From IMG/VR virus record IMGVR_UViG_3300042446_001683: a stretch of 64,000 nucleotides of DNA; one strand, given 5' to 3'. Origin of the DNA: a virus. The notes below the pieces were generated by a model, which had not been told where the DNA came from, did not search any database, and saw nothing but the letters and a program-made list of their open reading frames with translations. The position numbers were made by a program, and so were the translations under genes. Shown here piece after piece: positions 33,680 through 57,806 of this stretch (position 1 is its first letter; every line of letters begins with the position of its first letter).

Positions 33680-34630
33680 ATGATTACTAAAATAAGAAAT
33701 TTTTACAAGCCGTTTGAGTACCAACAGGCGTTTGATTTTTATAAAGATCAACATCGCTCACATTGGTTAGCAGACGAAGTGCCATTAGCATCAGATTTAG
33801 GTGACTGGAAAGGCAAATTAACAGAACCTGAAAGGAATTTAATTGGAAACATATTAAAGTCATTTGCCCAAACAGAAGTTCATGTGAACGATTATTGGTC
33901 GACAAAAGTATCAGTATGGTTTCCAAAACCTGAAATTCAAGCAATGGCTCGTGTGTTTGCTGATTTTGAATCAATTCATGCTGAAGCATATGCTCGTTTG
34001 AATGAAGAATTAGGTTTAGATGATTTTCAAGCGTTCTTAGAAGATGAAACATCAAAAGCAAAAATTGAGCGTTTAATTGAAACACCAGGTGAAACATTAG
34101 AGGAAAGAGCATTATCATTAGCTATATTCTCAGCGTTCACTGAAGGAGTAAATTTGTTTAGTTCGTTTGCTATATTAATGAGTTTCCAATTAAGAAACTT
34201 AATGAAAGGAACAGGCCAAATTGTTGAGTGGAGTGTTAGAGATGAATCATTACATTCTAAAGCAGGATGTTGGTTGTTTAGAACATTACTTGAAGAACAA
34301 CCTGAACTAAATAATAACAGACTAAGAGACGCAGTAATAGAAGCATGCCAAATATCAGTACAATTAGAATTTGATTTTATTGATAAGGCATTTGAAATGG
34401 GAGATGTTGATGGATTAAATGTTAATCAATTAAAGAATTTCATTAAAGCACGAGCTAACGAGAAAATGTTAGAATTAGGTTATAATGCAATTTATAATGA
34501 CATTGATCCGGGTTTATTAAAACAAATTGAGTGGTTCGGTCATTTAACAAGCGGTAAAACGCATCAAGATTTCTTTGCGGGAAGAGTAACTAGTTACTCA
34601 AAGTCAACAGCAGATTGGGACGATTTATAA
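33680..34630 (+). CDS. nrdB: Ribonucleotide reductase class Ia beta subunit
   Basis: HWLADEV, ESIHAEAY, EGVNLFSSF, RDESLH, DFFAGRVTSY. Confidence 0.95.
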   Translation: MITKIRNFYKPFEYQQAFDFYKDQHRSHWLADEVPLASDLGDWKGKLTEPERNLIGNILKSFAQTEVHVNDYWSTKVSVWFPKPEIQAMARVFADFESIHAEAYARLNEELGLDDFQAFLEDETSKAKIERLIETPGETLEERALSLAIFSAFTEGVNLFSSFAILMSFQLRNLMKGTGQIVEWSVRDESLHSKAGCWLFRTLLEEQPELNNNRLRDAVIEACQISVQLEFDFIDKAFEMGDVDGLNVNQLKNFIKARANEKMLELGYNAIYNDIDPGLLKQIEWFGHLTSGKTHQDFFAGRVTSYSKSTADWDDL

Positions 34631-34640: not shown

Positions 34641-36365
34641 ATGAGTATACAAGTAGACACAGATGGATGGGTTAAAGGAAAGAACTACCCAAGTTGGATG
34701 GATGAGATTGCTGTTAGCATGATTTCAAAAGGTTATTTATTGCCTGATGAAGATGTATTTGACGCATATAAAAGAGTAACTAAATCAGCTGCTCGTAGAT
34801 TAAAACGTAAAGACTTACAACCGTTCTTTTATGAGGCGATAGTCAAGAATTGGTTATGTTTAGCATCACCTGTATTATCAAACTTAGGTACAGAACGTGG
34901 AATGCCTATTTCATGCTTTGGTATCGATGTTGGAGACAGCATCGAAGGTATTGCAGATGCTAACTCTGAATTAATGAGACTATCATCTCAAGGTGGTGGT
35001 GTAGGTATTGGTTTATCTCGCATTAGAGGCCGAGGTAAAGCGATTAAAGACAATGGTGTATCTGAAGGTATTGTTCCGTGGGCTAAAATTTATGATTCAA
35101 CCATTTTAGCTACTAACCAAGGATCAGTTCGTAGAGGAGCGGCATCAGTTAACTTAAATATTAATCACCCTGATGTTGAGGAATTTTTACAAATTCGTAG
35201 ACCAAAAGGTGATGTTAATCGTCAATGTTTGAACTTACACCAATGTGTTGTTATTGATGACCAGTTTATGACTAACCTAGACAATAAAGAACCTAGAGCA
35301 ATGAAGTTGTGGGGTGAGATTTTAAAAACACGTCTTGAGACAGGTGAGCCTTATATTATGTTTGAAGATAATGTTAATAATACAAATCCTGAAGCATATA
35401 AGAAAAATAACTTACATGTATCAATGACTAACATTTGTTCTGAGATTTCATTATATACAGATGAATTACATTCATTTATTTGTTGTTTATCATCTTTAAA
35501 CTTAGCTCGTTGGGATGAATGGAAAGATTTTACATTTGAAAATGGAATGACATTACCTGAGTTAACTTGTTGGTTTTTGGAAGGTGTATTACAAGAATTT
35601 ATTGATAGAGCTAAAAATGTTAAGTTTATGGAAAACACAGTTCGTTCTGCTACTAAAGGTAGAGCAATTGGAATTGGTGTTTTAGGATGGCATACATTTT
35701 TACAATCAAAGAATTTACCATTTGTAGGTATTCAAGCAACTGCTTATACAAGAATGATATCTGACTTTATTGAGAAAGGCGCTTTAAAAGCATCTCACGA
35801 CCAAGCAGAATTATATGGTGAGCCAGAATGGTGTAAAGGCACAGGTATGAGACATACTCATCACTTAGCAATTGCACCTACAGTATCAAACGCTCATATT
35901 TCAGGAGGTGTATCACCTTCAATTGAACCTATTCCTGCTAATGTTTATAATTTGAAAACAGCGAAAGGTGTATTCATTAAGCGTAATAAAATATTAGAGG
36001 AATTACTTGAAACTAAAGGATATAACATTGATAGTGTTTGGGAACAAATTCTAAAAGACCAAGGTTCAGTTATTAATGTTCCTTCTTATATTTTAACTGA
36101 TGAAGAAAAGGAAGTATTCTTAACATTCAAAGAAATCAACCAATTAGAAATTGTAAGACAAAATGGTGTTAGACAAGAATATGTAGACCAAGCTATCTCA
36201 TTAAACTTATGTTTTGATCCAAATGATACTCCAAAATGGATTAGCCAAGTACATAAAGAGGCTCATAAACTAGGGATTAAAACATTATACTACTTACGTA
36301 CTGAATCAGTATTAAGAGGAGATAATTTACAGCGTTTATCGGAATGCATCAGTTGTGAAGGATAA
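34641..36365 (+). CDS. nrdA: Ribonucleotide reductase class Ia alpha subunit (short, no obvious ATP cone)
   Basis: PISCF, GGGVG, RRGA, TNICSEI, APTVS, TLYYLR, C-terminal CISCEG. Confidence 0.95.
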   Translation: MSIQVDTDGWVKGKNYPSWMDEIAVSMISKGYLLPDEDVFDAYKRVTKSAARRLKRKDLQPFFYEAIVKNWLCLASPVLSNLGTERGMPISCFGIDVGDSIEGIADANSELMRLSSQGGGVGIGLSRIRGRGKAIKDNGVSEGIVPWAKIYDSTILATNQGSVRRGAASVNLNINHPDVEEFLQIRRPKGDVNRQCLNLHQCVVIDDQFMTNLDNKEPRAMKLWGEILKTRLETGEPYIMFEDNVNNTNPEAYKKNNLHVSMTNICSEISLYTDELHSFICCLSSLNLARWDEWKDFTFENGMTLPELTCWFLEGVLQEFIDRAKNVKFMENTVRSATKGRAIGIGVLGWHTFLQSKNLPFVGIQATAYTRMISDFIEKGALKASHDQAELYGEPEWCKGTGMRHTHHLAIAPTVSNAHISGGVSPSIEPIPANVYNLKTAKGVFIKRNKILEELLETKGYNIDSVWEQILKDQGSVINVPSYILTDEEKEVFLTFKEINQLEIVRQNGVRQEYVDQAISLNLCFDPNDTPKWISQVHKEAHKLGIKTLYYLRTESVLRGDNLQRLSECISCEG

Positions 36366-36395: not shown

Positions 36396-37067
36396 ATGAA
36401 ACTATCACAACTAAAACAAATCATCAAAGAAGAAATTCAAAATTCTTTAAAAGAAGCACCTGCTACCCCAGCATTAAAACCTTTAGATTTTACTAAACTT
36501 GATAATATATTTAATGTATTAACAACACCTCAACCAGGTTTAAGTAAAGAAGAGAGTGGTTATGAAACTATATCTGACGAAAAACCAGGCTCTTTTAAAT
36601 ATGTGACAAAGTTTCTTCAGAAATTAGCTGATGCTCATGCTAAAGGAGATAAAAAGTTTATAGATTTTATATCTAAAAATACAGATACTTTCCCACCTTC
36701 AGTAACAGTTGAGGATGATATTACTGATTATCTTAAAGATAAAAATTTAGCAAAACAGATTCAGAAGCTTAATGATATTTTTTATGGTATAGATTACAAT
36801 CTTTACGAAATTGAACCAGATGATGTTATAAGATCATATAATGAATTAGCGGATTTTGTTAATAAATTTGGTACAACCAAAGATGTAGGTTCTAACTCTA
36901 GAGATGATGCAAAAGCTTGGCTCGCGGCAAAGAACGCGCCAGCTAGCCCTGCGAAAACATACACTGGTAGTGACATGGCTAAATTAGTTAACTCACCAGA
37001 TTTTGATCAAAAATACACTATAACCACTAACGCTAAAGGTGAAATGGTTATTACTCCTAAGAAGTAA
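36396..37067 (+). CDS. Hypothetical protein with MKLSQLKQIIKEEI leader (candidate internal head protein)
   Basis: Shared 14-aa leader, then LKE-A. Confidence 0.6.
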   Translation: MKLSQLKQIIKEEIQNSLKEAPATPALKPLDFTKLDNIFNVLTTPQPGLSKEESGYETISDEKPGSFKYVTKFLQKLADAHAKGDKKFIDFISKNTDTFPPSVTVEDDITDYLKDKNLAKQIQKLNDIFYGIDYNLYEIEPDDVIRSYNELADFVNKFGTTKDVGSNSRDDAKAWLAAKNAPASPAKTYTGSDMAKLVNSPDFDQKYTITTNAKGEMVITPKK

Positions 37068-37073
37068 GTTGTT

Positions 37074-37424
37074 ATGAAACTATCTCAACTAAAACAAATC
37101 ATCAAAGAAGAAATTAAAGATTCTTTAAATGAAGCTAGTAATCTAGAATCTAAAGTAGCTGATTTATATGGATATGCTGGTGTAAAGACTCAGTATGATG
37201 ATGATATGGTTAAGAGATATGGTCAAAAAGTAATTGACCTAGCTGTAGAAATGGCTCCAAAAATATTAGCATATGAATCTGAACTTAAGAACATAGTTAA
37301 GCAAATGGAAGCATCACCAGAAGCAAAAATGCTGTTAAGAGCTATGTCAGAAGCTCGAGGATATAGTGGAGGCAGATCATATGTATCTTTAGGAGATTTA
37401 ATTAACCGATACACAAAAGACTAA
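37074..37424 (+). CDS. Hypothetical protein with MKLSQLKQIIKEEI leader
   Basis: Shared leader, then LNE-A. Confidence 0.6.
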   Translation: MKLSQLKQIIKEEIKDSLNEASNLESKVADLYGYAGVKTQYDDDMVKRYGQKVIDLAVEMAPKILAYESELKNIVKQMEASPEAKMLLRAMSEARGYSGGRSYVSLGDLINRYTKD

Positions 37425-37425
37425 T

Positions 37426-38049
37426 ATGAAACTATCACAACTTAAACAAATCATCAAAGAAGAGATAAACGAACTTGGATTTGACTACCCAGGTAAAGAA
37501 CAAACTCCTTCAGCATATCAAAACGGTATCATGGATACTTTAAAAGCTATACAACAATTAGGAGTAAATGTTGATGTAAATGCTGTAATGGATATACTTT
37601 ACCCAGATGATGAAAGTCCTAAAGATGAAAATCCAATAAATGAAAACTATGTGCTAGATGCTATGGGTACTGTGCTAGTAGGAGGTGTTGGATTAGTATT
37701 AGCAACAGCTGGTATTGTTGGTGGTACTGCTTTAGCTCTAGATAATATCCAATATGGTCCAATAGGTGATACTATTAGAAAATTAAAAAACAAAATAAGT
37801 GATCGTAAATTTAATAAGTATATTAGACCAATACTCCTTCGTTTTAAAAACGATCAAGTATTACAAGATATGTTTGAAAAATATAACTCAGCATCCTCCT
37901 TTGAATTTGATGCAATTAGAAAAGAAATTGCTGACTATATTGAAAGTAAACTTTCATCTAGAGAGTTAAAATATATTAAAGATGTTGTTGATTCATTACA
38001 TATGTCAGATCTATCTAAATCATTTAAACAAGAAGATGATATGATTTAA
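37426..38049 (+). CDS. Hypothetical protein with MKLSQLKQIIKEEI leader and hydrophobic segment
   Basis: Shared leader, INE-L; internal GTVLVGGVGLVLATAGIVGGTALAL. Confidence 0.6.
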   Translation: MKLSQLKQIIKEEINELGFDYPGKEQTPSAYQNGIMDTLKAIQQLGVNVDVNAVMDILYPDDESPKDENPINENYVLDAMGTVLVGGVGLVLATAGIVGGTALALDNIQYGPIGDTIRKLKNKISDRKFNKYIRPILLRFKNDQVLQDMFEKYNSASSFEFDAIRKEIADYIESKLSSRELKYIKDVVDSLHMSDLSKSFKQEDDMI

Positions 38050-38975: not shown

Positions 38976-39782
38976 ATGAAAATAAAAGTCTCACATGAAG
39001 TACCATTAGCAGTACTAAACGTCTCACAAACATTCAATGATTACGATTATTGTTTGCCTCACTTACTAGATAGTGAGTATGAATATTTTAAGTATTTTGA
39101 CCAAGCAAAGAAAGATGGTCGTTACATTATCATGGATAATAGTTTACATGAACTAGGACATGCTTATGATACTGAACGTCTATTACATTGGGTTAATTAC
39201 TTTGAACCAAATGAATTTATTGTACCTGATGTATGGCAAGATATGCAAGCATCTATTGATAATGCTGCAGAATGGGCTAAAATTAAGTTACCTTACTATA
39301 CTACTAAAGTAGCGGTTGTTCAAGCAACTAATATTGAAGAAGCAGCTGAATGTTATTTAAAATATAAATCATTAGGTTATAAGAAAATAGCATTTTCATA
39401 TGGTGCCGGGTATTATAAAGAGCATTTTACTCATATATTACCAGCAATTTCTACTGCAATGGGTCGAGTAAATGTTATAGGTAAGTTGTATAATAGCGAT
39501 GTTATTCAATCTACTGATAGAGTTCACTTACTTGGATGTGCTGCTCCTCAAGAGTTTTTATTCCACCAGAATTACCCATTCATTGAAAGTATAGATACTT
39601 CAAATCCAATTATGGCTGCGATGGAAGATAAAATGTATAAAGAACATGGTTTGGATGAGAAACCAATTACTAAAATTGACCATGTTATGAATCGTGCCTC
39701 TGAAGATATTAACTGGTATGCTTTACATTACAATGTAAATAAATTTAGAAAAATTAACCGTTTAGATAAAATTATAAAATAA
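38976..39782 (+). CDS. TGT/DpdA-like TIM-barrel protein, putative 7-deazaguanine DNA transglycosylase
   Basis: IMDNSLHELG, VPDV, AVVQ, VHLLG, SIDTSNP parallel the DSG / PD / H.LG / S.DS motifs of DpdA-type enzymes; heads the que cluster. Confidence 0.65.
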   Translation: MKIKVSHEVPLAVLNVSQTFNDYDYCLPHLLDSEYEYFKYFDQAKKDGRYIIMDNSLHELGHAYDTERLLHWVNYFEPNEFIVPDVWQDMQASIDNAAEWAKIKLPYYTTKVAVVQATNIEEAAECYLKYKSLGYKKIAFSYGAGYYKEHFTHILPAISTAMGRVNVIGKLYNSDVIQSTDRVHLLGCAAPQEFLFHQNYPFIESIDTSNPIMAAMEDKMYKEHGLDEKPITKIDHVMNRASEDINWYALHYNVNKFRKINRLDKIIK

Positions 39783-39787
39783 GAGTT

Positions 39788-39940
39788 ATGGAAGATGTAT
39801 GGCATGGGTTAGTAGCCCCTACACAAGGAAATTTGTATGAACAAGAATGGAATGATGCTATAAAAAAGCTAAAGAAAGGTCGTCTTAGCTTGTCAAACGA
39901 GGATACAGATATTATATTACAAATAGCAAATAAATTATGA
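39788..39940 (+). CDS. Small hypothetical protein (50 aa, not in ORF track)
   Basis: MEDVWHGLVAPTQGNLYEQEW...IANKL*; GTTATG start; ATGA overlap with queC. Confidence 0.55.
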   Translation: MEDVWHGLVAPTQGNLYEQEWNDAIKKLKKGRLSLSNEDTDIILQIANKL

Positions 39941-40785
39941 AGAAACAAGCAGTATTATCATTAAGTGGAGGAATGGATAGTTCTACACTATTGCTTCATC
40001 TCCTCGCCAATGGCTATGAAGTTACAGCATTATCATTTGATTATGGACAAAAACATAATATAGAATTAGAGCGCGCTAAAGATTTAGTTAAATACATTAA
40101 TGGATATTGTATTTTAGATGAAGAGTCTAAAACAGCAGAATACCCATATTATATAAAACATCAAATAATCAAACTAGATGGCCTATCTGAACTATTAAAC
40201 TCAGCATTAGTAACTGGAGGTGAAGAAGTACCTGAAGGACACTATGCTGAAGAGAATATGAAAGCAACAGTAGTTCCTAATCGTAATAAGATTTTTAGTT
40301 CTATTATTCAAGCAGTTGCATTATCAATTGCTGAACAAAAAGATACTGAATGCGCTATTGCAATGGGAATACATGCAGGTGATCATGCTATTTATCCTGA
40401 TTGTCGTCAAGAATTTAGAGATGCTGATTTTGAAGCATTTAAGATGGGTAATTGGGGTGCTGAAAAAGTATATCATTATACACCTTATTTACATACTGAT
40501 AAGTTTGGTATTTTACAAGATGGTAATTCATGTGTTGAATGCTTAGGCTTAGACTTTAATGAAGTATACAAACGTACAAACACATCATACAAACCAATTT
40601 ATTACTTTTTCAGCTGTTACAGTGATTACAAATCAGCATCATCAGTAGAACGAGTTGAAGCATTTATGAAACTTGGAAAACCAGACCCAGTTGAATATGC
40701 TGATGAGACAGGTCCTGTAAGTTGGGAAACAGTAGTAGAACATGTAGAAACAATTTTAAATAATCACAATAATGCCAACATCTAA
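39937..40785 (+). CDS. queC: 7-cyano-7-deazaguanine synthase
   Basis: LSGGMDSST, FDYGQKH, TVVPNRN, HAGDHAIYPDCRQEF. Confidence 0.93.
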   Translation: MKKQAVLSLSGGMDSSTLLLHLLANGYEVTALSFDYGQKHNIELERAKDLVKYINGYCILDEESKTAEYPYYIKHQIIKLDGLSELLNSALVTGGEEVPEGHYAEENMKATVVPNRNKIFSSIIQAVALSIAEQKDTECAIAMGIHAGDHAIYPDCRQEFRDADFEAFKMGNWGAEKVYHYTPYLHTDKFGILQDGNSCVECLGLDFNEVYKRTNTSYKPIYYFFSCYSDYKSASSVERVEAFMKLGKPDPVEYADETGPVSWETVVEHVETILNNHNNANI

Positions 40786-40936
40786 AAAACGAGGTGGGAA
40801 GAAAGCCCATAACAAGCGAGTTACAAAACGTAATGAAACAACCGCTAAAAATAGATTAATCATGGAACGTAAGTTTATGGCTATGTTAAAAGAGCAAATC
40901 CAACGACAAAACCCAGAAACAGAAGATAATGCTTAA
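40772..40936 (+). CDS. Small basic protein (54 aa, not in ORF track)
   Basis: MPTSKKRGGKKAHNKRVTKRN...EDNA*; fills the gap in the operon. Confidence 0.55.
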   Translation: MPTSKKRGGKKAHNKRVTKRNETTAKNRLIMERKFMAMLKEQIQRQNPETEDNA

Positions 40937-40940
40937 ATCT

Positions 40941-41096
40941 ATGAAATACCCAGATCCTAAAAAACATCAACAAATTAGTTTCGCTAAATCATTTTTACGA
41001 TTAGCAGGATATGTATTATTATTTATTAACTTACCTATAGCTGCTAGTGTATTAATAGCTAGTGAAATATTAGGTATAATCGAAGAATTAGTATGA
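40941..41096 (+). CDS. Small membrane protein (51 aa, not in ORF track)
   Basis: MKYPDPKKHQQISFAKSFLRLAGYVLLFINLPIAASVLIASEILGIIEELV*; ATGA overlap with thioredoxin. Confidence 0.65.
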   Translation: MKYPDPKKHQQISFAKSFLRLAGYVLLFINLPIAASVLIASEILGIIEELV

Positions 41097-41344
41097 AAGA
41101 ATTATTTTACTACACAGCAAATTGGTGTAATCCATGCCAAACCTTAGGCCCAATTATGGATGAAATTGCAAGACAAATCCCAGTCCGTAAACAAAATATT
41201 GATTACACTGATCCATCATTATTAGAGGCTGCTAATGTACGAAATGTACCTACAGTTATCCTAGTAGAAAATGGACAAGAACTAAAACGTTTTACAGGAG
41301 TAAAATCACACTCACAAATTATAACTTGGTTAAATGAAGGATAA
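41093..41344 (+). CDS. Thioredoxin
   Basis: WCNPC, VRNVPT, RFTG. Confidence 0.88.
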   Translation: MKELFYYTANWCNPCQTLGPIMDEIARQIPVRKQNIDYTDPSLLEAANVRNVPTVILVENGQELKRFTGVKSHSQIITWLNEG

Positions 41345-41345
41345 T

Positions 41346-41816
41346 ATGAAAACAAAATTCCAATCAACAAAAATATTTGATGGGTTTAGTACTGTATTTC
41401 GTCAATGGAGAGCAGATGGAACACACTGTCAATTTCTACATGGTTATGGTATTTCATTTAAAATTACATTTGAAGGTGAATTAGATGAGAGAAATTGGGT
41501 ATGGGACTTTGGTGGTATGAAAAGAGCTAAAGGTACTATTGATGGTATGAATCCTAAAGCATGGATGGATCATATGTTTGATCATACTGTAATTATGGCT
41601 GAAGATGACCCTTATTTAGAATTATTTGAAGACATGGATAAAAATAAACTTATCCAATTAAGAGTAATACCAGCTACAGGAGCAGAACAGTTTGCTAAAT
41701 ACATTTACGATAAAGTAAATAAATTTGTATTAGAAGAAACAAATAATAGAGTACGTGTTGTTCAAGTAGAATTCAAAGAGCATAATAAAAACTCAGCTAT
41801 CTATGGAGAAATATAA
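41346..41816 (+). CDS. queD: 6-carboxy-5,6,7,8-tetrahydropterin synthase
   Basis: HCQFLHGY, WVWDFG, FDH, AEQFA, V.FKE; ATG 41346 preferred. Confidence 0.88.
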   Translation: MKTKFQSTKIFDGFSTVFRQWRADGTHCQFLHGYGISFKITFEGELDERNWVWDFGGMKRAKGTIDGMNPKAWMDHMFDHTVIMAEDDPYLELFEDMDKNKLIQLRVIPATGAEQFAKYIYDKVNKFVLEETNNRVRVVQVEFKEHNKNSAIYGEI

Positions 41817-41817
41817 T

Positions 41818-42324
41818 ATGGAAACTCCGTATTTAATAAAACAACCTATTTTTAAAGATAATAGAGGATTATTTACCCCAATTGAATTAAATGATAATTG
41901 GACTCAATCTAATGTTATTGTTAATAATAGTATTTATACTTTTAGAGGAATGCATCTACAATCTTCTCCTAAACAACAAAGTAAATTATTATTTGTAATC
42001 CAAGGTAGGATAGTAGATATAATTATTGACCTTAGAAAAGATAGTGAGACTTATAAAAAAGTAGATTCATTTGTTCTAGAAGAAGGAGATGGATTATATG
42101 TTCCTAAAGGATATGCTCATGGGTTTTTAACTTTAACTCCTAATTCTATAGTTAATTATTTAGTAGATGAAGAATACTCACCTAAAAATGAAATAAATAT
42201 ATTATGGTCCTCAATACCAGAAGTTAAGTCTATTATAGATAGATTTTGCTTCAATAATATAGATAATGATGTTGTTTTTAGTGATAAAGATAAACAAGGA
42301 ATCAATTTAAACGAAATATTATGA
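41818..42324 (+). CDS. rfbC: dTDP-4-dehydrorhamnose 3,5-epimerase-like cupin
   Basis: FKDNRGLF, RGMHLQ, Q.KL, DLRKDS, VPKGYAHGF. Confidence 0.82.
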   Translation: METPYLIKQPIFKDNRGLFTPIELNDNWTQSNVIVNNSIYTFRGMHLQSSPKQQSKLLFVIQGRIVDIIIDLRKDSETYKKVDSFVLEEGDGLYVPKGYAHGFLTLTPNSIVNYLVDEEYSPKNEINILWSSIPEVKSIIDRFCFNNIDNDVVFSDKDKQGINLNEIL

Positions 42325-43103
42325 AACCAGGAAGAATAGAAGATTATAATAAAAAATTACCTATTGTAGAGTTATACACAGCTGTACAATCTGAAGGTAG
42401 TAGAGCTGGGATGCCTACAGTAGTTATTAGAACTACAGGATGTACTCACAGATGTTGGTTTGGAGATGGTGGATGGTGTGATAGTTGGTATACAAGTATT
42501 CATCCTGAAAAAGGAAAATATACGTTTAACGATATTATTGCTATTTATGACAATAACCCATTCATTAGAGAAATGATGCTAACAGGTGGTTCACCTACAA
42601 TGCATCCTGACTTAGTAAATGAATTAACCCATTTAGCAGAAAAACGTGGCCTATTTATCACAATTGAAACAGAAGGTTCTCATTTCATTGAAACTGACTA
42701 CCCTATTGGTCTTATATCTCTTAGTCCTAAGTTTAGTAACAGCGTTCCTGCAATTGGGACTATTACTCCGCAAGGTAAAGTTGCTGACCAAAAAATGGTG
42801 GACCAACATAACAAATTTCGTCTCGATAAAGAAGCGATAAAAAAGACATTAGAATACCATCATGACTATCATTTCAAACCTGTTTGTAATCCTATTGAAA
42901 TGTCTGAAGCATGGACTGAGATTGAAGCGTTTAGAGTTGAAATGGATATTCCAAAACGTAAGACTTGGTTAATGCCTCCTGGTGATACAAGAGATGAATT
43001 AATTCGAGTATATCCTATGGTGATGGACTTTTGTAGAGATAATGGTTATAATTTTACAGGTAGAGAACATATTATAGCATTTGACACTAAAAGAGAAGTA
43101 TAA
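42321..43103 (+). CDS. queE: 7-carboxy-7-deazaguanine synthase (radical SAM)
   Basis: VQSEGSRAGMP, RTTGCTHRC...WCDS, LTGGSP, IETEGS, SPK. Confidence 0.88.
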   Translation: MKPGRIEDYNKKLPIVELYTAVQSEGSRAGMPTVVIRTTGCTHRCWFGDGGWCDSWYTSIHPEKGKYTFNDIIAIYDNNPFIREMMLTGGSPTMHPDLVNELTHLAEKRGLFITIETEGSHFIETDYPIGLISLSPKFSNSVPAIGTITPQGKVADQKMVDQHNKFRLDKEAIKKTLEYHHDYHFKPVCNPIEMSEAWTEIEAFRVEMDIPKRKTWLMPPGDTRDELIRVYPMVMDFCRDNGYNFTGREHIIAFDTKREV

Positions 43104-43378
43104 TGGATAAAAAATTATTAACTGAAGCATTAAAAACAAAAAATACTGTTACATTCTTCTACGCTGATTGGTGTGGAGGATGTAAAGTAGCTAATCCTAT
43201 GGTTCAAGAAATCGCTGAAAAACTTGGATTTGAAATTATTAATATTAATGAAAATGAGGAATTAGAAACAGCGTTTGCTATAGATTATTACCCTCACGTA
43301 ATATTATCCAACAAAGGAAAAATTAAACATTACCCAGGGTTACATTCAATAAAAGAGTTACATGAAAGTATTATTTGA
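43103..43378 (+). CDS. Thioredoxin-like protein
   Basis: FYADWCGGCK, YYP. Confidence 0.8.
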   Translation: MDKKLLTEALKTKNTVTFFYADWCGGCKVANPMVQEIAEKLGFEIININENEELETAFAIDYYPHVILSNKGKIKHYPGLHSIKELHESII

Positions 43379-43871
43379 AAATGAAGTCATCGAGGCAAGA
43401 ATTGATTTCTTAGCTACACAAATTTTAAATCGCCATAAATCAGAAAAAATTCCTATTGTTTTAGTATGTGTACTAAATGGTGGATTTGTTTTCTATTCTA
43501 AACTAGCTGAAAAATTATCTTCACTAGACCCAGAATGTGATTTTGTAAAAGTAAGGTCATATGAAGGTAGAGAACGAGGCGATTTAAATATGATACTAGA
43601 CAAATCAGTAGATGTCACTAATAAACATGTTTATATTGTAGATGACATCTACGACTCAGGAATAACAATGAATGCATTAGCAAATCATTTTTATCAATTT
43701 GACCCAGCAAGCGTCCAAATAGTTACTCTGATTAAGCGTTACATCAATGAAGTAAATATACCTGTAGGTTCACTTTATGGATTTGAAATTACAGATGAAT
43801 GGGTTGTTGGATTTGGAATGGATGATGATTTAGGTAAAAAGAGAAGTTTGCCATATATTTTGGCTATCTAG
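43362..43871 (+). CDS. Purine phosphoribosyltransferase (HPRT-like)
   Basis: VLNGG, RSY, IVDDIYDSGIT PRPP-binding motif, WVVGFGMD, RSLP. Confidence 0.88.
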   Translation: MKVLFENEVIEARIDFLATQILNRHKSEKIPIVLVCVLNGGFVFYSKLAEKLSSLDPECDFVKVRSYEGRERGDLNMILDKSVDVTNKHVYIVDDIYDSGITMNALANHFYQFDPASVQIVTLIKRYINEVNIPVGSLYGFEITDEWVVGFGMDDDLGKKRSLPYILAI

Positions 43872-43888
43872 AAATAAATTAATATATT
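43860..43888 (+). promoter_or_regulatory. TTGGCT-N17-TATATT promoter
   Basis: Upstream of folE. Confidence 0.65.
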
Positions 43889-43895
43889 AGGTTAT

Positions 43896-44591
43896 ATGGA
43901 AAATAATAGAAGAAAATTTCACAACGATATTGAGTGTGTGAAGACAGGTTTAGCAAATGGTGCTGCCGCAGATCGTCCATTAACGGATGATGAAAAACAA
44001 TCAATGATTGAAGAAGCCACAGTACATTTTGGTAATTTCTTATCAGCATTAAAATGTGACTGGCAAAATGATCCTAACTCAGCAGATACACCTCGCCGTG
44101 TAGCTAAAGCATATGTTAATGATTTATGGGCTGGTCGTTATAATGGATTTACTGACATTACTTCATTCCCATCAGATGGTTATGATGGAGTAATTATTGA
44201 ACGTAATATCAATTTAACTTCAATGTGTTCACATCATCACCAAACAATTAGAGGTGTAGTTCATATTGGTTATATTGCAGGTGCTGAAGGTCGAGTAATC
44301 GGTTTATCAAAACTAAATCGCATTGTAGAACATTTTGGTCGTAGAGGAGCTATCCAAGAACAATTAACAGCAGCTATTCATCAAGCAGTAAATAAAGTTT
44401 GTGAAGAGAACTTAGGTGTTATTGTAACTGTAGTTGCTACTCACAATTGTGTTAGTTGTAGAGGTATTAAACATCAAGGTGCAGCAATGGTCACTACTAA
44501 AGCATCAGGTGTGTTTATGGAAAACGATAATTTAGCACGTAAAGAATTTTTTGATTCACTTAAAATAAATAATGGTCATGTCTCAATCTAA
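43896..44591 (+). CDS. folE: GTP cyclohydrolase I
   Basis: DTPRRVAK, SMCSHH, GLSKLNR, IQEQLT, HNCVSCRG. Confidence 0.95.
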   Translation: MENNRRKFHNDIECVKTGLANGAAADRPLTDDEKQSMIEEATVHFGNFLSALKCDWQNDPNSADTPRRVAKAYVNDLWAGRYNGFTDITSFPSDGYDGVIIERNINLTSMCSHHHQTIRGVVHIGYIAGAEGRVIGLSKLNRIVEHFGRRGAIQEQLTAAIHQAVNKVCEENLGVIVTVVATHNCVSCRGIKHQGAAMVTTKASGVFMENDNLARKEFFDSLKINNGHVSI

Positions 44592-45066
44592 AGAAAATTA
44601 TGTTCCATTTGTTAGCGAGGTAGAGGAATTTAACGCTACAATGGGTAAACCAAATAATTATGAACCTACTATTCCACCTAAAGATGAGTGGATGTTTGTT
44701 TATAATTTTATTCTAGAGGAACTAGAAGAATATAAAGACGCTTGTGAAACAGGAAATGTTGTAGAAGTATTAGATGCACTTTGTGATATTACTTATGTGT
44801 CACTAGGTAATGGAGCTATGCTTCATGGTCTAAAAGATCAAATTTTACCTGCATATGCTGAGGTTCAAGCTTCAAATATGAGTAAAGTTTGTAAAACAGA
44901 AGAGGAAGCTAACTTTACAGTTCGTGTTCGAGAACAAGAACAAGGTGAAAAATGCCACTATGAAAAACAAGGTGATTATTATATAGTGTATCGTTCTCGA
45001 GACCGTAAAGTAATGAAGTCAATAAACTATTTTAGACCGAATCTTAAACAGTTTTTAGATAAATAA
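44572..45066 (+). CDS. MazG-like all-alpha NTP pyrophosphohydrolase
   Basis: ILEELEEY...EVLDALCDITYV, EVQASNMSK, KVMKS. Confidence 0.82.
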   Translation: MVMSQSKENYVPFVSEVEEFNATMGKPNNYEPTIPPKDEWMFVYNFILEELEEYKDACETGNVVEVLDALCDITYVSLGNGAMLHGLKDQILPAYAEVQASNMSKVCKTEEEANFTVRVREQEQGEKCHYEKQGDYYIVYRSRDRKVMKSINYFRPNLKQFLDK

Positions 45067-47649
45067 ATGTATCAAGCAATATACTACGACTTTCAAACCT
45101 ACACCTACCATTTACGAGACGATAAGCAAGGCTGGATGGATTTCCAATTCCAGCCTACTTACTGGAAAAGAGTAAATGAATGGCAAGATGGAGCTAAACC
45201 TGTATTAACAGGTGGATGGGCTATACCTACTAAAAAATTAGACAAAAACGATCCTGATTTATTAGAAAAAGATATTGATAAGTCATTGTATGTGTTACGA
45301 GAATTATATTACAAATTTGATGATGTAGTTCCTTCTTGGCATAACATAGTTTATATAGATATCGAGATTGAAATGGGAGGTGCATTAACACCTGAGTATA
45401 TTAGGTCCGCTCCTATGCCTTTAACATCTATAGCTTTAATAGACATGACTACTAAACAGAAGATATGTTTTATTGTTGATAAGTCAAAACAAATACCTGA
45501 AACGAATCAGGATGGTAAAATAATTATACCTTGTGGTTCAGAACGAGAGTTAATAGGTAAGTTTTTATCCAAGTATGAAGAGTTAGATCCCACCATATTA
45601 GTCGGCTATAACTCGGCATACTTCGACTTACCATACTTATACTACCGAATGTCACAAGTTGTAGGTGCAGACGAGGTAAGCCGTTTATCTCCGATAGGTA
45701 GAGTTGAAGCACGTGATTTTAATGGTGAAAACCAAGTTAAAATTGGAGGTGTGAATCATTTAGACTATATGTTACTTCATAAGAAGTACATTATGAAAGA
45801 GGAACCATCATATAAATTAGGTGACATTGGAACCAAATATGTTGGGTTAGGTAAAATTGAATATGAAGGCAATTTGAATACATTGTTTAAAAATGATTTA
45901 AATACTTTTATTGATTATAACTTACGAGACGTTGAGATTCTAGAAAAACTAGAAGATAAATTAAAGTTTATTGAATTAACAGTTATGATCTCTCATATCT
46001 GTAATATACCTTATGAGTCAGTCTATTATAACACTGTAATGAATGAAGGTGCTATATTAAAGCATTTGAGACGTGAAGGTATTATTTCACCTAATAAACC
46101 AACAACTCATAATCTGTCTCGTAAAGTAGCCAACTCAACATATGCTGGTGGTTACTTATTAGAACCAATACCAGGTCTATACTTTGATGTAATTGACTTA
46201 GACTTTACTTCACTATATCCTTCAATCATTAAATCACTTAATTTAGGAATTGAAACATTAGTAGGTAGAATTGTTACTTTAAATCCTACCTATGAACAAA
46301 ATCATAGTTTAGAAAAACTTAAAGAACGAGATCCTAATGAAGTAGTAACAGTTGAAAAACTAAATAAAAAGAACTACACATTACAAGCAGCTCAAATATC
46401 AATTGGTAAGTTAATTAAACTAATTGAAGATAATGAGTTCACACTATCAGCTTCAGGCGCTATGTTTAGAACTGATGAACAAAGTGTAGTTGCTAAAATT
46501 TTAGAAGGCTGGTTTGATAAACGAGAACATTATAGAGGTTTAAAGAAAACAGCGGGTAAATCTGAAGACTGGGTTAACTATAAATTATATGATTTGTTTC
46601 AACACTCATTTAAGATCTTACAAAACGCTATGTATGGTACATTTGCTAAGAATGGATGGAGATATACAGATGGACATTTAATTTGTAGTGCTGCTATTAC
46701 TAACAGTGGTCAAAGATTAACTCAAGAAAGTATTATATTTGCTAATGATAAACTAAACACTGAATTAAAATCAGATAAACAATTTATTTGTATTAGTGAT
46801 ACTGACTCTATGTATATTGAATTAGGTGATTTATTAAAACATAGATACCCTGACTCAACACCTGACCAGAAAGATGAATTAATATTAAAAATGGCTACTG
46901 AAATTCAAGATGAGTCAAATTACTACTTGAATGAATTATGTAAGAAAGTATTTAATATTAATCCTAAAAAACATTATTTTCAATTAAAACAAGAGGTAAT
47001 TGCTAAAGGTATCTTAGTTACAGGTAAGAGAAGATATGCAATGTATATTACTAACAAGGAAGGTGTTGCTGTTGAAGAGTTAGACATGAAAGGACTTGAA
47101 TTAATGAAGTCTAACATGAATAAACGATTTAAAGGATTTGGTGAACAATTTATTAAAGATATTTTATTTGGTAAAGCCAAAACAGAAATAGACCAGACAA
47201 TAATTGACTTCTATAAATTAGTTAAGACACTAGATCCTCGAGAATTAGGTAAACCAACAGGTGTAAAACAAATAGCATCATATAGGAACGCTCCTAGAGC
47301 AGGTGAAATGTTTAGTACATTCAGATTAAAAGCACCTAGTAATACTAAGGCAGCTGTTCGTTATAATGACTTATTAAAGTTTAAACGTTTAGATAAACAA
47401 TACGAATCAGTAGTAGAAGGTGATAAAATATTCATTATTAACTTAAAAGCTAATCCTTATAAGTTAGATACAATAGGATTACCAAATGCTAAAGTACCTG
47501 ATGAGATTGAAAAGTTTGTTAAGACATATATTGATGTAGATGAAATTTTTGAATCACTACTATTAAACAAATTAAAGGAACTTTACAAGGACTTAAAATG
47601 GGATTTTCCACCTTTGAATGCAAATGTTAATAAATTCTTTGCCTTCTAA
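45067..47649 (+). CDS. DNA polymerase family B with 3'-5' exonuclease
   Basis: DIEIE, GYNSAYFD, YNLRDV, DFTSLYPS, KILQNAMYG, SDTDS, KRRY, KGLE. Confidence 0.95.
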   Translation: MYQAIYYDFQTYTYHLRDDKQGWMDFQFQPTYWKRVNEWQDGAKPVLTGGWAIPTKKLDKNDPDLLEKDIDKSLYVLRELYYKFDDVVPSWHNIVYIDIEIEMGGALTPEYIRSAPMPLTSIALIDMTTKQKICFIVDKSKQIPETNQDGKIIIPCGSERELIGKFLSKYEELDPTILVGYNSAYFDLPYLYYRMSQVVGADEVSRLSPIGRVEARDFNGENQVKIGGVNHLDYMLLHKKYIMKEEPSYKLGDIGTKYVGLGKIEYEGNLNTLFKNDLNTFIDYNLRDVEILEKLEDKLKFIELTVMISHICNIPYESVYYNTVMNEGAILKHLRREGIISPNKPTTHNLSRKVANSTYAGGYLLEPIPGLYFDVIDLDFTSLYPSIIKSLNLGIETLVGRIVTLNPTYEQNHSLEKLKERDPNEVVTVEKLNKKNYTLQAAQISIGKLIKLIEDNEFTLSASGAMFRTDEQSVVAKILEGWFDKREHYRGLKKTAGKSEDWVNYKLYDLFQHSFKILQNAMYGTFAKNGWRYTDGHLICSAAITNSGQRLTQESIIFANDKLNTELKSDKQFICISDTDSMYIELGDLLKHRYPDSTPDQKDELILKMATEIQDESNYYLNELCKKVFNINPKKHYFQLKQEVIAKGILVTGKRRYAMYITNKEGVAVEELDMKGLELMKSNMNKRFKGFGEQFIKDILFGKAKTEIDQTIIDFYKLVKTLDPRELGKPTGVKQIASYRNAPRAGEMFSTFRLKAPSNTKAAVRYNDLLKFKRLDKQYESVVEGDKIFIINLKANPYKLDTIGLPNAKVPDEIEKFVKTYIDVDEIFESLLLNKLKELYKDLKWDFPPLNANVNKFFAF

Positions 47650-47672: not shown

Positions 47673-48398
47673 ATGATATCAAAATTACAACTACAAGCAA
47701 TTATTGAAAAGTACCATTTAAATGGTCAAATTGAAAATGTTAAATGGGAAATAGACGCTGATGGAAAGCTAACTATTAACTTTACAGCTCCTACTCGTGA
47801 GATGTTAGGAACAGTAACTTATAATGGTTTTCCATTACCTGAATCTGAAATTGGAATTAATAACACTACACAACTAGATAAATTATTATCTATTACAGGT
47901 GGTGATTTAGATCTTGGTTATGCTAAAGAAGGTAGAATAATATCTAAATTATTAATAGCAGATAATCAGTTCAATCTAGATTATGCCTTAGCTGACTTAT
48001 TAACCATTCCTAAAACAGGTAAATATAATGGTTCTGAGGATCATGAGATTCAAGTACCAATTGATGATGAAGTAATAACCGCGTTAGTTAAAGCTAAAAA
48101 CGCGTTAACAAATAGTGATAATGTTGTTGTTAAGTTAGGTTTAAACGGTTTAGAGTTCACTTTCGGAGGCGATGTTGAATATGCTAATAAAGTTACTTAT
48201 TCCATTCAAAATCCAACAATAAATGTACCTTCAACATTTAATTTAGTATATGGTTCTGATCTGTTAAAGGAAATATTAGTTGCTAATAAAGGTTCTGAGT
48301 CTGGTATTTTGTATATAAATTCAAATGGTTTAATGAAACTAACATTCTCTCACAAAGAATTACAAAGTACTTACTATATTGTTGCAAAAGAACAATAA
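47673..48398 (+). CDS. DNA sliding clamp, gp45/PCNA-like
   Basis: 241 aa, two-domain beta-rich pattern, after PolB; ends GLMKLTF...STYYIVA. Confidence 0.65.
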   Translation: MISKLQLQAIIEKYHLNGQIENVKWEIDADGKLTINFTAPTREMLGTVTYNGFPLPESEIGINNTTQLDKLLSITGGDLDLGYAKEGRIISKLLIADNQFNLDYALADLLTIPKTGKYNGSEDHEIQVPIDDEVITALVKAKNALTNSDNVVVKLGLNGLEFTFGGDVEYANKVTYSIQNPTINVPSTFNLVYGSDLLKEILVANKGSESGILYINSNGLMKLTFSHKELQSTYYIVAKEQ

Positions 48399-56020: not shown

Positions 56021-56031
56021 TAAAAAGTTAT

Positions 56032-57339
56032 ATGAGCAAACCGTTATTTTTTATATCATGTCCTATTGATACTTACTCAGGATATGGAGCACGTTCTCGT
56101 GATTTAGTTAAAGCAATTATTGAGTTAGATAAATACAATGTAAAAATTCTTCCTCAAATGTGGGGGAATACACCTTGGAACTTTATCAATGATAATCCAG
56201 AATGGGGATTTTTAAATAATTACATTTACAACCAACCTCAACTACCTAAACAACCAGAAATTTGGATGCAAATTACTATACCAAGTGAATTTCAACCAAT
56301 AGGAAAATATAACATTGGGGTAACAGCTGGGATTGAAACAACATTATCACCTGGTGATTGGATTGAAGGTATTAATAGAATGAATTTAGTATTAACTTCA
56401 TCTGAACATTCAAAGAAAACATTTATTGATACTGTTTTACAAAAAGTAGATCAACGTTCAAATCAAGTTATTGGGGAAGCTAAAGTTGAAAAACCACTTG
56501 AAGTATTATTTGAAGGAGCAGATGTTAATGTTTATAAACCACTTGATAAAGTAGATTCATTTCCTGAGTTAAACAATATTAAAGAAAAGTTTGCTTTTCT
56601 ATTTGTTGGACATTGGATTAATGGTGATTTAGGAGAAGATAGAAAAAATGTTGGATTATTAGTTAAAATGTTTTATGAACTATTTAAAAACAAAAAAGAC
56701 AAACCAGCGTTAATTTTAAAAACATCTCAATTTGGCTCATCATACTTAGATAGAGATGAAATTTTAAGAAAAATTAATTTTATTAAATCATCAATTAACA
56801 GTAAAGATTTACCTAATGTTTACTTACTACATGGTGAATTTAGTGATAATGAAATGAATGAGTTATACAATCATGATAAAGTTAAAGCAATGATTAACTT
56901 AACTAGAGGTGAAGGATTTGGACGCCCATTACTTGAATTTAGTTTAACTAAAAAACCAATTGTGACAACTAATTGGAGTGGACATACAGATTTCTTACAT
57001 CCTGAATTTACAACATTATTACCTGGTAAATTAACAGATGTGCACCCAAGTGCTGCAAATCAATGGTTACTAAAAGAATCACAATGGTTTTCAGCAGATC
57101 TAGGTCATGCTGGGACAGTTGTTAAAGATATATTTGAAGATTATAAAAAGTATATTGATGGAGGTAAACGTCAAGCTCATAAAAGTAAAACTGAGTTTAG
57201 TTGGGAAAAAATGAAGAGTAAAGTAGATGAATTATTTACTAAATACATTCCTGAGTTCCCAAAACAAGTAGAATTAAAATTACCTACTTTAAAGAAAATT
57301 GAATTACCTAAATTACAAAAAGAAGAAACAAATGGATAA
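56032..57339 (+). CDS. Glycosyltransferase (GT-B, GT4-like)
   Basis: SGYGAR, FLFVGHW, RKN, RGEGFGRPLLE, TNWSGH. Confidence 0.88.
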   Translation: MSKPLFFISCPIDTYSGYGARSRDLVKAIIELDKYNVKILPQMWGNTPWNFINDNPEWGFLNNYIYNQPQLPKQPEIWMQITIPSEFQPIGKYNIGVTAGIETTLSPGDWIEGINRMNLVLTSSEHSKKTFIDTVLQKVDQRSNQVIGEAKVEKPLEVLFEGADVNVYKPLDKVDSFPELNNIKEKFAFLFVGHWINGDLGEDRKNVGLLVKMFYELFKNKKDKPALILKTSQFGSSYLDRDEILRKINFIKSSINSKDLPNVYLLHGEFSDNEMNELYNHDKVKAMINLTRGEGFGRPLLEFSLTKKPIVTTNWSGHTDFLHPEFTTLLPGKLTDVHPSAANQWLLKESQWFSADLGHAGTVVKDIFEDYKKYIDGGKRQAHKSKTEFSWEKMKSKVDELFTKYIPEFPKQVELKLPTLKKIELPKLQKEETNG

Positions 57340-57799: not shown

Positions 57800-57806
57800 A
57801 GGTTAT

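Follow-up and report, generated by a model that had tools for sequence, protein, structure and literature searches.

Known systems

In Z-genome (2-aminoadenine) phages (PurZ, MazZ, DatZ and DpoZ), base-synthesis genes occur together with those of an NTP pyrophosphatase and a polymerase, as in the locus described here. These phages make the modified dNTP before replication and rely on a proven dATPase to purge dATP. Closer to the present locus are the Flavobacterium phage immuto and the Campylobacter phage CP220 (Firehammervirus; 100% dADG), both of which encode a DpdA3-type guanine transglycosylase. So far, neither in vitro work nor work in E. coli has shown DpdA3 to carry out complete post-replicative exchange, and ADG nucleoside has been detected in CP220-infected cells (PMC10516641). 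An earlier proposal, made for Campylobacter phages, was that a modified dGTP is used pre-replicatively (Crippen 2019, cited in PMC6884629). A literature search found no open paper connecting a phosphoribosyltransferase (PRTase) with DpdA clusters; the PRTase considered below is a previously unremarked member of a cluster type that is itself known.

Organization of the locus

The window is the whole 64,000-nucleotide stretch of virus record IMGVR_UViG_3300042446_001683 that was analysed, and derives from an uncultivated myophage, probably one with a Bacteroidota host. At a probability of about 0.55, it carries a DpdA3-type 7-deazaguanine DNA-modification module, inside a replication and nucleotide-metabolism region, in which base exchange by DpdA3 is combined with guanine salvage by a PRTase that feeds FolE; this figure is a joint one for the module and the salvage reading. 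The genes concerned are as follows.

33680..34630, + strand: RNR small subunit, just 5' of the cluster (PF00268, E 6e-64)
34641..36365, + strand: RNR large subunit (PF02867, E 4e-95)
38976..39782, + strand: putative guanine transglycosylase of the DpdA3 subfamily (36% identity with immuto DpdA, 34% with the CP220 homologue; AF2 model)
39937..40785, + strand: QueC, preQ0 synthase type (PF06508, E 2e-38; 64% identity with immuto QueC)
41093..41344, + strand: thioredoxin 1, whose position 5' of queD is kept in relatives (PF00085, E 3e-14)
41334..41816, + strand: QueD, CPH4 synthase (PF01242; phrog_2389, E 1e-42; Cys of CxxxHG retained)
41803..42324, + strand: RmlC-like cupin (PF00908, E 5e-35)
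42321..43103, + strand: QueE, CDG synthase, radical SAM (phrog_2076, E 9e-49; TIGR03365)
43103..43378, + strand: thioredoxin 2 (PF00085, E 3e-13)
43362..43871, + strand: Hpt-type 6-oxopurine PRTase (TIGR01203, 128 bits; solved HGPRTs, E 2e-26)
43896..44591, + strand: FolE, GTP cyclohydrolase I, first step of deazaguanine synthesis (PF01227, E 2e-41; NF006824)
44572..45066, + strand: MazG-like all-alpha NTP pyrophosphohydrolase (PF01503; phrog_671; 75% identity with immuto gp208)
45067..47649, + strand: PolB, family B replicative DNA polymerase (PF00136, PF03104; phrog_262, E 2e-145)

An earlier, sequence-only reading had named eight of these genes (DpdA-like, queC, queD, queE, PRTase, folE, NTP-PPase and polB), and their coordinates and identities were all borne out, each gene lying on the + strand. 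The tight packing that it described was also found, with folE and mazG overlapping by 20 nt and the polB ATG abutting the mazG stop codon. It had seen no queF, and tblastn of the window returned none; a search of the relative G006, a complete genome of 160.8 kb, likewise yielded none. Three genes were absent from that reading, namely the two thioredoxins and the cupin. The cupin gene is wedged between queD and queE; it is missing from the closest relatives, since queD there abuts or overlaps queE. Cupin homologues lie between split polB halves in two other loci (L066 and L085), and the gene is probably a lineage-specific insertion outside the deazaguanine pathway. The sequence-only reading had supposed a single promoter for folE, the NTP-PPase and polB; a scan for sigma-70 promoters returned 68 sites against 62 expected. 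A match of the form TTGGCT-N17-TATATT ends just 5' of folE.

The transglycosylase

The DpdA3-like protein scored 25.6 bits against PF20314/DUF6610, slightly short of the family cut-off. It is 36.6% identical to immuto DpdA over 96% of the length and 34.5% identical to CP220 gp056, and it matched phrog_19058 with an E value of 2.5e-39. According to the AF2 model (pLDDT 92, pTM 0.89), the protein has the TGT-type (beta/alpha)8 barrel fold; the top Foldseek matches of this model were bacterial TGT, archaeal TGT and DpdA 7ui4 (E about 1e-8, probability 1.00). Alignment of 17 diverse sequences revealed invariant D54-N-S, P84-D85, Q116, H184-L-L-G187, E193 and D207 of IDTS. From their order and spacing, these residues are the likely equivalents of TGT D102, D156, Q203, G230, E235 and D280. 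DpdA3 is a bare TIM barrel of 260–270 aa that does not contain a zinc subdomain, and the family is uniformly acidic (pI 4.6–5.9) with a single invariant Arg.

The phosphoribosyltransferase

The PRTase matched PF00156 with an E value of 4.5e-22. It scored 128.2 bits against TIGR01203 (HGPRTase; cut-off 150) and 91 against NF006605 (cut-off 181), and because neither cut-off was reached it is treated here as a divergent member of the superfamily and the equivalog name is withheld. Its PRPP-binding motif, which includes the catalytic Asp, reads VDDIYDSGITM (expected xDDIxDSGxT), and D94, D95, D98, G100 and T102 show no or almost no variation among 20 sequences. Throughout the phage Hpt family, the catalytic Asp acting on purine N7 is invariant. 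At the position of the O6-binding Lys, the same family has an almost invariant Arg126 (or, in another alignment, Lys125 next to it); Trp147 stands in place of the stacking Phe and Asn39 in place of the Lys/Arg of the PPi loop. These departures at hallmark positions could reflect an altered base specificity; the Arg126/Trp147/Asn39 pattern is compatible with use of 6-oxopurines or with a shifted specificity. In human HPRT, 7-substituted 7-deazaguanines are neither substrates nor inhibitors (PMC5389723).

Association of the PRTase with deazaguanine clusters

The linkage of the PRTase with these clusters is far beyond chance. When IMG/VR loci were retrieved by the PRTase alone, 76 of 80 were found in que/folE clusters; the four exceptions include one complete genome in which folE lies 53 kb from the PRTase. 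The gap between the PRTase stop and the folE start did not exceed 59 nt in 41 of the 51 distinct relatives. When loci were selected by DpdA3 instead (37 loci whose downstream sequence extended for 6 kb or more), every one had a PRTase beside folE, 27 of the Hpt type and 10 of the Gpt type in the same slot. The IMG/VR loci share ancestry, so these raw counts do not represent independent events. The co-occurrence of PRTase and NTP-PPase with que genes, which the sequence-only reading had proposed as a check, was strongly positive, with a 6-oxopurine PRTase in essentially every such cluster and the NTP-PPase in most. This dNTP pyrophosphatase adjoins folE and the polymerase, as the PRTase does. 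In deposited phage records, no DpdA3 phage was among the matches of the Hpt-type PRTase, several of which were bacterial or unannotated contigs.

The Hpt-like and Gpt-like enzymes are two unrelated, non-homologous PRTase types that occupy one slot, and they have been exchanged at least seven times on the DpdA3 tree, including between well-supported sister pairs. Guanine is the main natural substrate common to the two types. In immuto, the slot is filled by the Gpt type. A Gpt-like domain is also fused to the N-terminus of FolE, with its RGG, DDIxDSGxT, IDK and PWE motifs intact, in phages of Pseudomonas (NP1, PaMx25 and others), Stenotrophomonas, Xanthomonas, Variovorax and Sphingomonas; in Vibrio phages the same domain is located at the folE/queD locus. 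A DpdA of phrog_887 comes after the fusion gene in the one such phage that was analysed closely. Characterized relatives of the fusion-bearing phages display only partial, motif-specific substitution (PMC10484667).

The pyrophosphohydrolase, polymerase and kinase

The MazG-like protein (PF01503, E 1e-8) has an intact EExxE...ExxD metal motif on a four-helix core, in which E49, E50, E53, E65 and D68 are invariant among 15 sequences. The nearest structure to its model (pLDDT 81) was the dUTP-specific DR2231, with a probability of up to 1.0 and a weak E value of 0.03. Apart from the MazG-like enzyme, the complete relative G006 encodes no dUTPase, canonical or otherwise, and relatives that do not carry MazG have an ORF resembling a dUTPase no more than about 3 kb from folE. 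From the likeness of the model to DR2231 and the gene content of G006, the MazG-like enzyme probably takes the part of a dUTPase and sanitizes the nucleotide pool.

The closest cultured match of PolB is 33% identical. Depending on the lineage, the flanking polymerase is either PolB or PolA, in modules that are otherwise syntenic; since the type changes, no dedicated, co-evolving polymerase is involved. The sequence-only reading had likened it to the dedicated polymerase of Z-genome phages, a comparison that this variation speaks against. On the favoured reading, PolB is simply an ordinary neighbouring replicase, adjacent because the module sits inside a replication block. A small P-loop kinase adjoins DpdA3 in CP220 and immuto and the PRTase in phiST, and is present in most complete relatives; it lies 100 kb away in G006 and is missing from the complete genomes G008 and G011.

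Proposed pathway and alternatives

The scheme proposed here starts from observed gene identities, folds, motifs, synteny, co-occurrence, Hpt/Gpt displacement and PRT-FolE fusions, and assigns all substrates and the direction of flux by inference. GTP would be converted to preQ0 by FolE, QueD, QueE and QueC, and, with QueF lacking, preQ0 or possibly ADG is the base predicted to be inserted. DpdA3 would place this base into phage DNA and release guanine; if CP220, phiST and immuto are a guide, replacement is probably very high or complete. The Hpt-type PRTase would combine the released guanine, along with guanine from host nucleic-acid breakdown, with PRPP to form GMP, which host Gmk and Ndk would convert to GTP and so return to FolE. 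The excised base would thereby be rebuilt into its own replacement. Salvage would also clear free guanine, which would compete with preQ0 at the transglycosylase.

The sequence-only reading had placed a different pathway first, from PRTase through RNR to PolB, and had offered salvage of guanine released by DpdA as the simpler alternative. Its gene set and co-occurrence stand, and the overall pattern favours its alternative over its headline pathway: Hpt and Gpt types were swapped at least seven times, Gpt-FolE fusions exist, CP220 carries no PRTase, the flanking polymerase varies and the MazG-like protein is structurally closest to a dUTP-specific enzyme. The invariant N7-handling Asp and the inability of human HPRT to use 7-substituted 7-deazaguanines (PMC5389723) count for salvage as well. 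In the pre-replicative pathway, the PRTase would make the ribonucleotide of a deazaguanine (preQ0, ADG or CDG), kinases and RNR would convert it to the dNTP, MazG would purge dGTP and the polymerase would incorporate the analogue, giving complete substitution. Polymerases accept 7-deaza-dGTP analogues (a point cited in PMC6884629 too), and every other known complete base replacement in phages is pre-replicative; both points speak for such a pathway. So do the gathering of RNR, PRTase, dNTP pyrophosphatase and polymerase in one block, the position of the phiST PRTase beside a dNMP-kinase-like gene and RNR, and the phage Hpt family's own substitutions at purine- and PPi-contacting positions together with its score under the HGPRT cut-off. 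TubE is a proven CDG:PRPP phosphoribosyltransferase, ToyH is predicted to act likewise with preQ0 (PMC6112128), and the modified-dGTP suggestion for Campylobacter phages points the same way (PMC6884629). However, this pathway leaves the universally conserved DpdA3 jobless, and CP220 reaches 100% replacement although no PRTase was found anywhere in its genome; for this reason the phage PRTase is not what completes replacement. Phages with a phrog_887-type DpdA, whose characterized relatives are modified partially and at specific motifs (PMC10484667), have this PRTase type as a fusion with FolE. The free interchange of Hpt and Gpt types, the retained N7-handling Asp and the varying polymerase also oppose it, and a ribonucleotide route would load RNA with the analogue too. 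A Z-genome-like system is not what the modules show, since the polymerase switches, MazG is missing from some and DpdA is always present. We consider the PRTase-based form very unlikely, and pre-replicative routes of all kinds, taken together, unlikely.

Several observations count against guanine salvage as well. Two host kinase steps separate GMP from FolE, so adjacency or fusion of PRTase and FolE does not join consecutive enzymes; the Hpt is divergent and below cut-off, TubE offers a precedent for another substrate, and DpdA3 is unreconstituted, acidic and zinc-less. The dNTP pyrophosphatase, conserved in the module and translationally coupled to folE, is a further point against it. Some of these features would fit an exchange at the nucleotide level, in which DpdA3 swaps guanine on dGMP (or dG or dGTP) and not on DNA. 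The MazG/dUTPase-like enzyme would then supply dGMP and deplete dGTP, an AAA_28/DNMK-type kinase would rephosphorylate the product and the PRTase would salvage guanine, with pre-replicative completeness in the style of Z-genome phages. Every conserved component, the dNTP pyrophosphatase included, is thereby given a job, and the P-loop kinase beside DpdA3 or the PRTase, the small acidic barrel with its one invariant Arg, the failure to reconstitute DNA-directed DpdA3 activity in E. coli and the detection of ADG nucleoside in cells infected by CP220 (PMC10516641) are in agreement. Yet all characterized enzymes of the TGT superfamily work on polynucleotides, nucleotide binding by DpdA3 is conjectural, and little can be read from the acidity and small size of the protein; the kinase is distant in G006 and absent from two complete genomes, and some clusters lack MazG. 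Such an exchange is quite unlikely. The least probable explanation is that PRTase and MazG are generic nucleotide-metabolism genes lying near the que genes by chance. MazG-like genes are indeed widespread in unrelated phages (307 records), and the entire region is a nucleotide-metabolism and replication block. Against this, IMG/VR homologues of the PRTase occur almost only within que clusters, the deposited matches include bacterial and unannotated contigs and no DpdA3 phage, PRT-FolE fusions exist, and the slot beside folE survives at least seven type swaps, rearranged gene order and a switch of polymerase or of DpdA type.

Comparison with known systems

In contrast to Z-genome phages, the window encodes a transglycosylase, the polymerase type is not conserved among related modules, and a dGTPase is conjectural. 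TubE and ToyH of tubercidin and toyocamycin biosynthesis, compared here by description, resemble the phage PRTase in belonging to PF00156 and in having genes near FolE, QueD and QueE homologues; TubE attaches CDG to PRPP on the way to a nucleoside antibiotic, and the TubE/ToyH clusters, unlike the window, contain no transglycosylase (PMC6112128). The Queuovirinae-like siphophages (NP1, PaMx25, JG012, Baskent_P4_1 and VpKK5) share the biosynthetic genes and the coupling of PRTase with FolE, there fused or adjacent, but have a DpdA1-type enzyme (phrog_887), a Gpt-type PRTase and a cluster without MazG.

CP220 shares with the window its DpdA3 homologue (34% identity), the que genes, a family B polymerase and the large myovirus form. 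Its que genes are scattered, however, and its DpdA3 is flanked by an HD-domain/P-loop fusion and an AAA_28 kinase. The Flavobacterium phage immuto (PMC10516641) is similar in QueD, QueE, FolE, MazG-like protein and QueC (62–77% identity) and in DpdA3 (36%), and it likewise has a PRTase directly 5' of folE and a polymerase followed by GroES and GroEL. It differs in its Gpt-type PRTase, PolA, QueF, DpdN formyltransferase and AAA_28 kinase beside DpdA3, whereas the window has an Hpt-type PRTase, PolB and an extra cupin, and no QueF, DpdN or kinase. The predicted base differs correspondingly, being preQ0 or ADG for the window and fdPreQ1 for immuto.

Organization of the cluster

The region from 38976 to 47649 is a single close-packed run of genes on the + strand, in which folE overlaps mazG by 20 nt and the ATG of polB directly follows the mazG stop codon. 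The gene inventory and tight packing described in the sequence-only reading were thus borne out, and two thioredoxins and a cupin were added to them.

Genes of the cluster (coordinates, strand, product)
38976-39782, +, DpdA3-type transglycosylase
39937-40785, +, QueC
between QueC and the first thioredoxin, +, three tiny ORFs
41093-41344, +, thioredoxin, first
41334-41816, +, QueD
41803-42324, +, RmlC-like cupin
42321-43103, +, QueE
43103-43378, +, thioredoxin, second
43362-43871, +, Hpt-type phosphoribosyltransferase (PRTase)
43896-44591, +, FolE
44572-45066, +, MazG-like NTP pyrophosphohydrolase
45067-47649, +, family B DNA polymerase (PolB)

The cluster is embedded in a block of genes for replication and nucleotide metabolism in a large phage, with a gp32-like SSB, a UvsX-like recombinase, a 5'-3' exonuclease, a DnaB-like helicase and both RNR subunits upstream, and GroES, GroEL and clamp-loader genes downstream. 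No near-identical counterpart of the cluster's DNA was found among 50,697 phage records, and the best PolB match in cultured phages was 33% identical. A 160.8-kb IMG/VR contig (G006) with terminal repeats and about 95% protein identity to the window was judged complete and used as its whole-genome proxy. Pfam and PHROGs gave no match for the five ORFs that separate RNR from dpdA3, for the small ORFs within the cluster or for 47673-48398; therefore, no kinase is visible within or adjoining the cluster. Among 14 long relatives, there were no real matches to thymidylate kinase (PF02223) or T4-type dNMP kinase (PF21448), and the sole kinase recovered was an AAA_28 kinase distant from the cluster. 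A scan of the window for sigma-70 promoters and terminators was uninformative.

Several other features of the window were recorded. The cupin gene behaves like a mobile moron gene, because it is an insertion in the que cluster that the closest relatives lack (there queD overlaps queE), and its homologues (L066:4273-4716 and L085:15803-16258; 41–44% identical) lie between the halves of a split polB. The polB gene is divided into two ORFs in many related contigs (L028, L029, L030, L033, L036-L038 and others) and is a single 860-aa gene in the window. At 36396-38049, three successive ORFs (223, 116 and 207 aa) with no Pfam or PHROG match open with the identical 14-residue peptide MKLSQLKQIIKEEI and then fully diverge. 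At 27460-28737, a 425-aa ORF without a Pfam match weakly resembles phrog_17 'DNA polymerase' (E 2.4e-8 over residues 199-404) and is possibly another, minimal polymerase-like gene in addition to PolB. A low-GC island (25–29%) at 54584-63073 encodes three glycosyltransferases (two GT1 and one GT2), together with an FkbM-type methyltransferase, a 2OG-Fe(II) oxygenase and another RmlC-like epimerase; possible roles are the hypermodification of DNA with sugars or the remodelling of glycans.

The transglycosylase and the predicted base

Complete G replacement is reported for DpdA3 phages, G giving way to dADG in CP220 (Campylobacter), dDG in phiST (Cellulophaga) and fdPreQ1 in immuto (Flavobacterium); a post-replicative mechanism was inferred by the same authors, whose reconstitution of DpdA3 was unsuccessful (Cui, Hutinet et al., PMC10516641). 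In a profile search, DpdA3 of the window matches Pfam DUF6610 marginally, just short of the cut-off; the protein shares 36% identity with the annotated immuto DpdA and 34% with the CP220 homologue. The structures closest to a confident model built from 17 diverse homologues (pLDDT 92) are the TGTs of bacteria and archaea and DpdA, which inserts preQ0 into DNA. The residues invariant among these homologues (DNS, PD, Q, HLLG, E and the Asp of IDTS) fit, by order and spacing, the base pocket and nucleophile of TGT, to which they probably correspond. The family is acidic throughout, and it lacks the cysteine cluster and hence also the zinc subdomain.

QueC of the window is 64% identical to that of immuto, whose pathway runs via preQ0, and QueD keeps its catalytic Cys. 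QueF, DpdN and a DpdL-like gene are found neither in the window, where the lack of queF had been noticed at the outset, nor in G006. On these grounds the prediction for the inserted base is preQ0, with ADG as a possible alternative. The greater divergence of DpdA3 from its immuto homologue, compared with 62–77% identity for the biosynthetic enzymes, fits a different inserted base. Some close relatives carry queD alleles only 39–43% identical to that of the window (L003:8146-8628, L011:12290-12772 and L018:8475-8963) amid neighbouring genes that are 95–97% identical, which indicates mosaic exchange inside the cluster. The divergent allele was considered as a DpdL decarboxylase and rejected, since the Cys motif of QueD is present in both alleles.

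Linkage of the PRTase with the module

When IMG/VR was queried with nothing but the PRTase, 80 loci were retrieved, of which 76 have the gene within the same module, most commonly in the order DpdA3-QueC-Trx-QueD-QueE-(Trx)-PRT-FolE-MazG-PolB. Among the remaining four, one is a complete genome with folE 53 kb distant. The gap between PRTase and folE is 18–59 nt in 41 of the 51 distinct PRTases with room downstream. A query with DpdA3 gave more than 580 matching stretches; among the best 80, which were examined, every one of the 37 new loci that extend 6 kb or more downstream has the PRTase adjoining folE, and a MazG-like gene is also present in 27 of these, although loci of both censuses share ancestry and the bare counts overstate independence.

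The independent evidence for linkage is in rearrangements and displacements. The PRT-FolE pair is kept in an altered order (PRT-FolE-QueD-QueE in loci L078, L080 and L082), alongside another polymerase (the lineage of L023 and the immuto-like one have PolA) and alongside another type of DpdA (L078 and L082 have a TGT-family gene of 422 aa). The linkage of PRTase, MazG and polymerase is real, and the co-occurrence of PRTase and NTP pyrophosphohydrolase with que genes, which the sequence-only reading had named as a check, is positive.

In 10 of the 37 DpdA3-selected loci, and in immuto, the Hpt-like PRTase is replaced by a small Gpt-like PRTase. The two types are scarcely alignable beyond the PRPP motif, and at least seven changes of type occur on the DpdA3 tree, some of them within strongly supported sister pairs. 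The Gpt-like PRTase of phiST adjoins a dNMP-kinase-like gene and RNR. In several phages, the Gpt-like PRTase is a domain at the N-terminus of a fused PRT-FolE protein, namely in Pseudomonas phages NP1, PaMx25, JG012 and Baskent_P4_1 and in Stenotrophomonas, Xanthomonas, Variovorax and Sphingomonas phages; Vibrio phages have a Gpt-like domain at the folE/queD locus. The PRTase motifs are all intact in the Gpt-like domains. In Baskent_P4_1, a phrog_887 transglycosylase directly follows the fusion gene. It is an unannotated 345-aa ORF (L095:6747-7784; phrog_887, queuine tRNA-ribosyltransferase/DpdA, E 8e-79), and the deposited record (PP992516.1) thus misses dpdA.

A PRTase of any kind is absent from the CP220 genome. 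There, DpdA3 is flanked directly upstream by gp055 (L002:10862-11893), in which an HD-domain phosphohydrolase is joined to a P-loop kinase-like domain, and directly downstream by an AAA_28 kinase; each is a candidate for a role in the nucleotide pool of this PRTase-less lineage.

The MazG-like enzyme and the polymerase

No protein of the module is more conserved than the MazG-like one (75% identity to immuto), in which the metal-binding motif is intact and a C-terminal extension is conserved. Neither the protein nor its profile had a sequence-level match in the PDB; its model is nearest, as a weak fold match, to DR2231, which is a dUTP-specific MazG-like enzyme. A canonical dUTPase is absent from complete relatives carrying this MazG, and in three MazG-less relatives a divergent ORF resembling trimeric dUTPases lies no more than about 3 kb from folE. 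A dUTPase-type sanitiser would be the parsimonious reading of these models and gene patterns. The adjoining polymerase is the resident replicase and no dedicated partner, because its type switches between PolB and PolA from lineage to lineage.

Role of the PRTase

Hpt and Gpt enzymes have no sequence relationship, and guanine is the chief natural substrate common to them. Three patterns suggest that selection acts on plain guanine phosphoribosylation: the recurrent Hpt/Gpt interchange, the constant adjacency or fusion of the PRTase to GTP-consuming FolE, and its presence in phages of another DpdA type, whose characterized relatives have partial, motif-specific modification (PMC10484667). The cost per substituted G is one dGTP and one GTP, with one guanine released. 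Each exchange would free this guanine while consuming one GTP-derived deazaguanine; its salvage by the PRTase would close the cycle beside FolE, or fused to it, and would also take away a competitor of the incoming base at the transglycosylase. An Asp that handles purine N7 is invariant in the phage Hpt family, and human HPRT ignores 7-substituted 7-deazaguanines (PMC5389723); such selectivity is what a salvage enzyme would need next to a large preQ0 pool. Guanine salvage, which the sequence-only reading held to be the simpler alternative, is favoured here with a probability of roughly 0.55, and its headline pathway of pre-replicative G replacement is less likely.

To our knowledge, all other complete base replacements in phages are pre-replicative. 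On a pre-replicative model, DpdA3 phages would build a deazaguanine deoxynucleotide at pool level, either through the PRTase acting on preQ0, ADG or CDG, followed by RNR, or through DpdA3 itself swapping the base on dGMP, with dGTP purged in both routes by the MazG/dUTPase-like enzyme. A modified-dGTP idea has already been raised for Campylobacter phages, as cited in PMC6884629, and TubE, a purine PRTase of tubercidin biosynthesis, ribosylates 7-carboxy-7-deazaguanine (PMC6112128). Also in favour of a pre-replicative route, the phage Hpt family falls under the HGPRT equivalog cut-off and has family-specific residues at three hallmark positions; a dNTP pyrophosphatase accompanies the system, as does a small kinase in most complete relatives. 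DpdA3 is a bare acidic barrel, with DNA as its presumed substrate, and its action on dGMP would give each conserved part a role. Loci L078 and L082 were rejected as DpdA-free, PRTase-only systems, because the TGT-family gene lies a few kb off, and the DpdA-free argument for a pre-replicative model therefore failed. Furthermore, CP220, without a PRTase, shows that complete replacement is not due to a phage PRTase. Taken together, all pre-replicative variants are considered unlikely; if true, they would overturn the published post-replicative model, and a nucleotide-level DpdA3 would be a TGT-fold enzyme that acts on free nucleotides.

Comparison with known systems

The putative guanine-salvage enzyme is conserved in hundreds of uncultivated phages and in several cultured ones (immuto, phiST and NP1-like phages), and in the cultured systems the PRTase is readily approached by genetics and biochemistry. 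For annotators, 'PRTase next to folE' can be used as a marker of deazaguanine DNA-modification modules. PRTases in DpdA phages are not discussed in the central DpdA papers or in open papers containing both 'DpdA' and 'phosphoribosyltransferase', and a conserved guanine PRTase, whether Hpt-like, Gpt-like or FolE-fused, appears to be an unreported component. Baskent_P4_1 shares the gene arrangement queE-queC-queD-folE-dpdA with the Queuovirinae. The cluster itself is an uncultivated representative of the already known DpdA3 systems, and we know of no phages other than these that reportedly replace one canonical base entirely by post-replicative base exchange.
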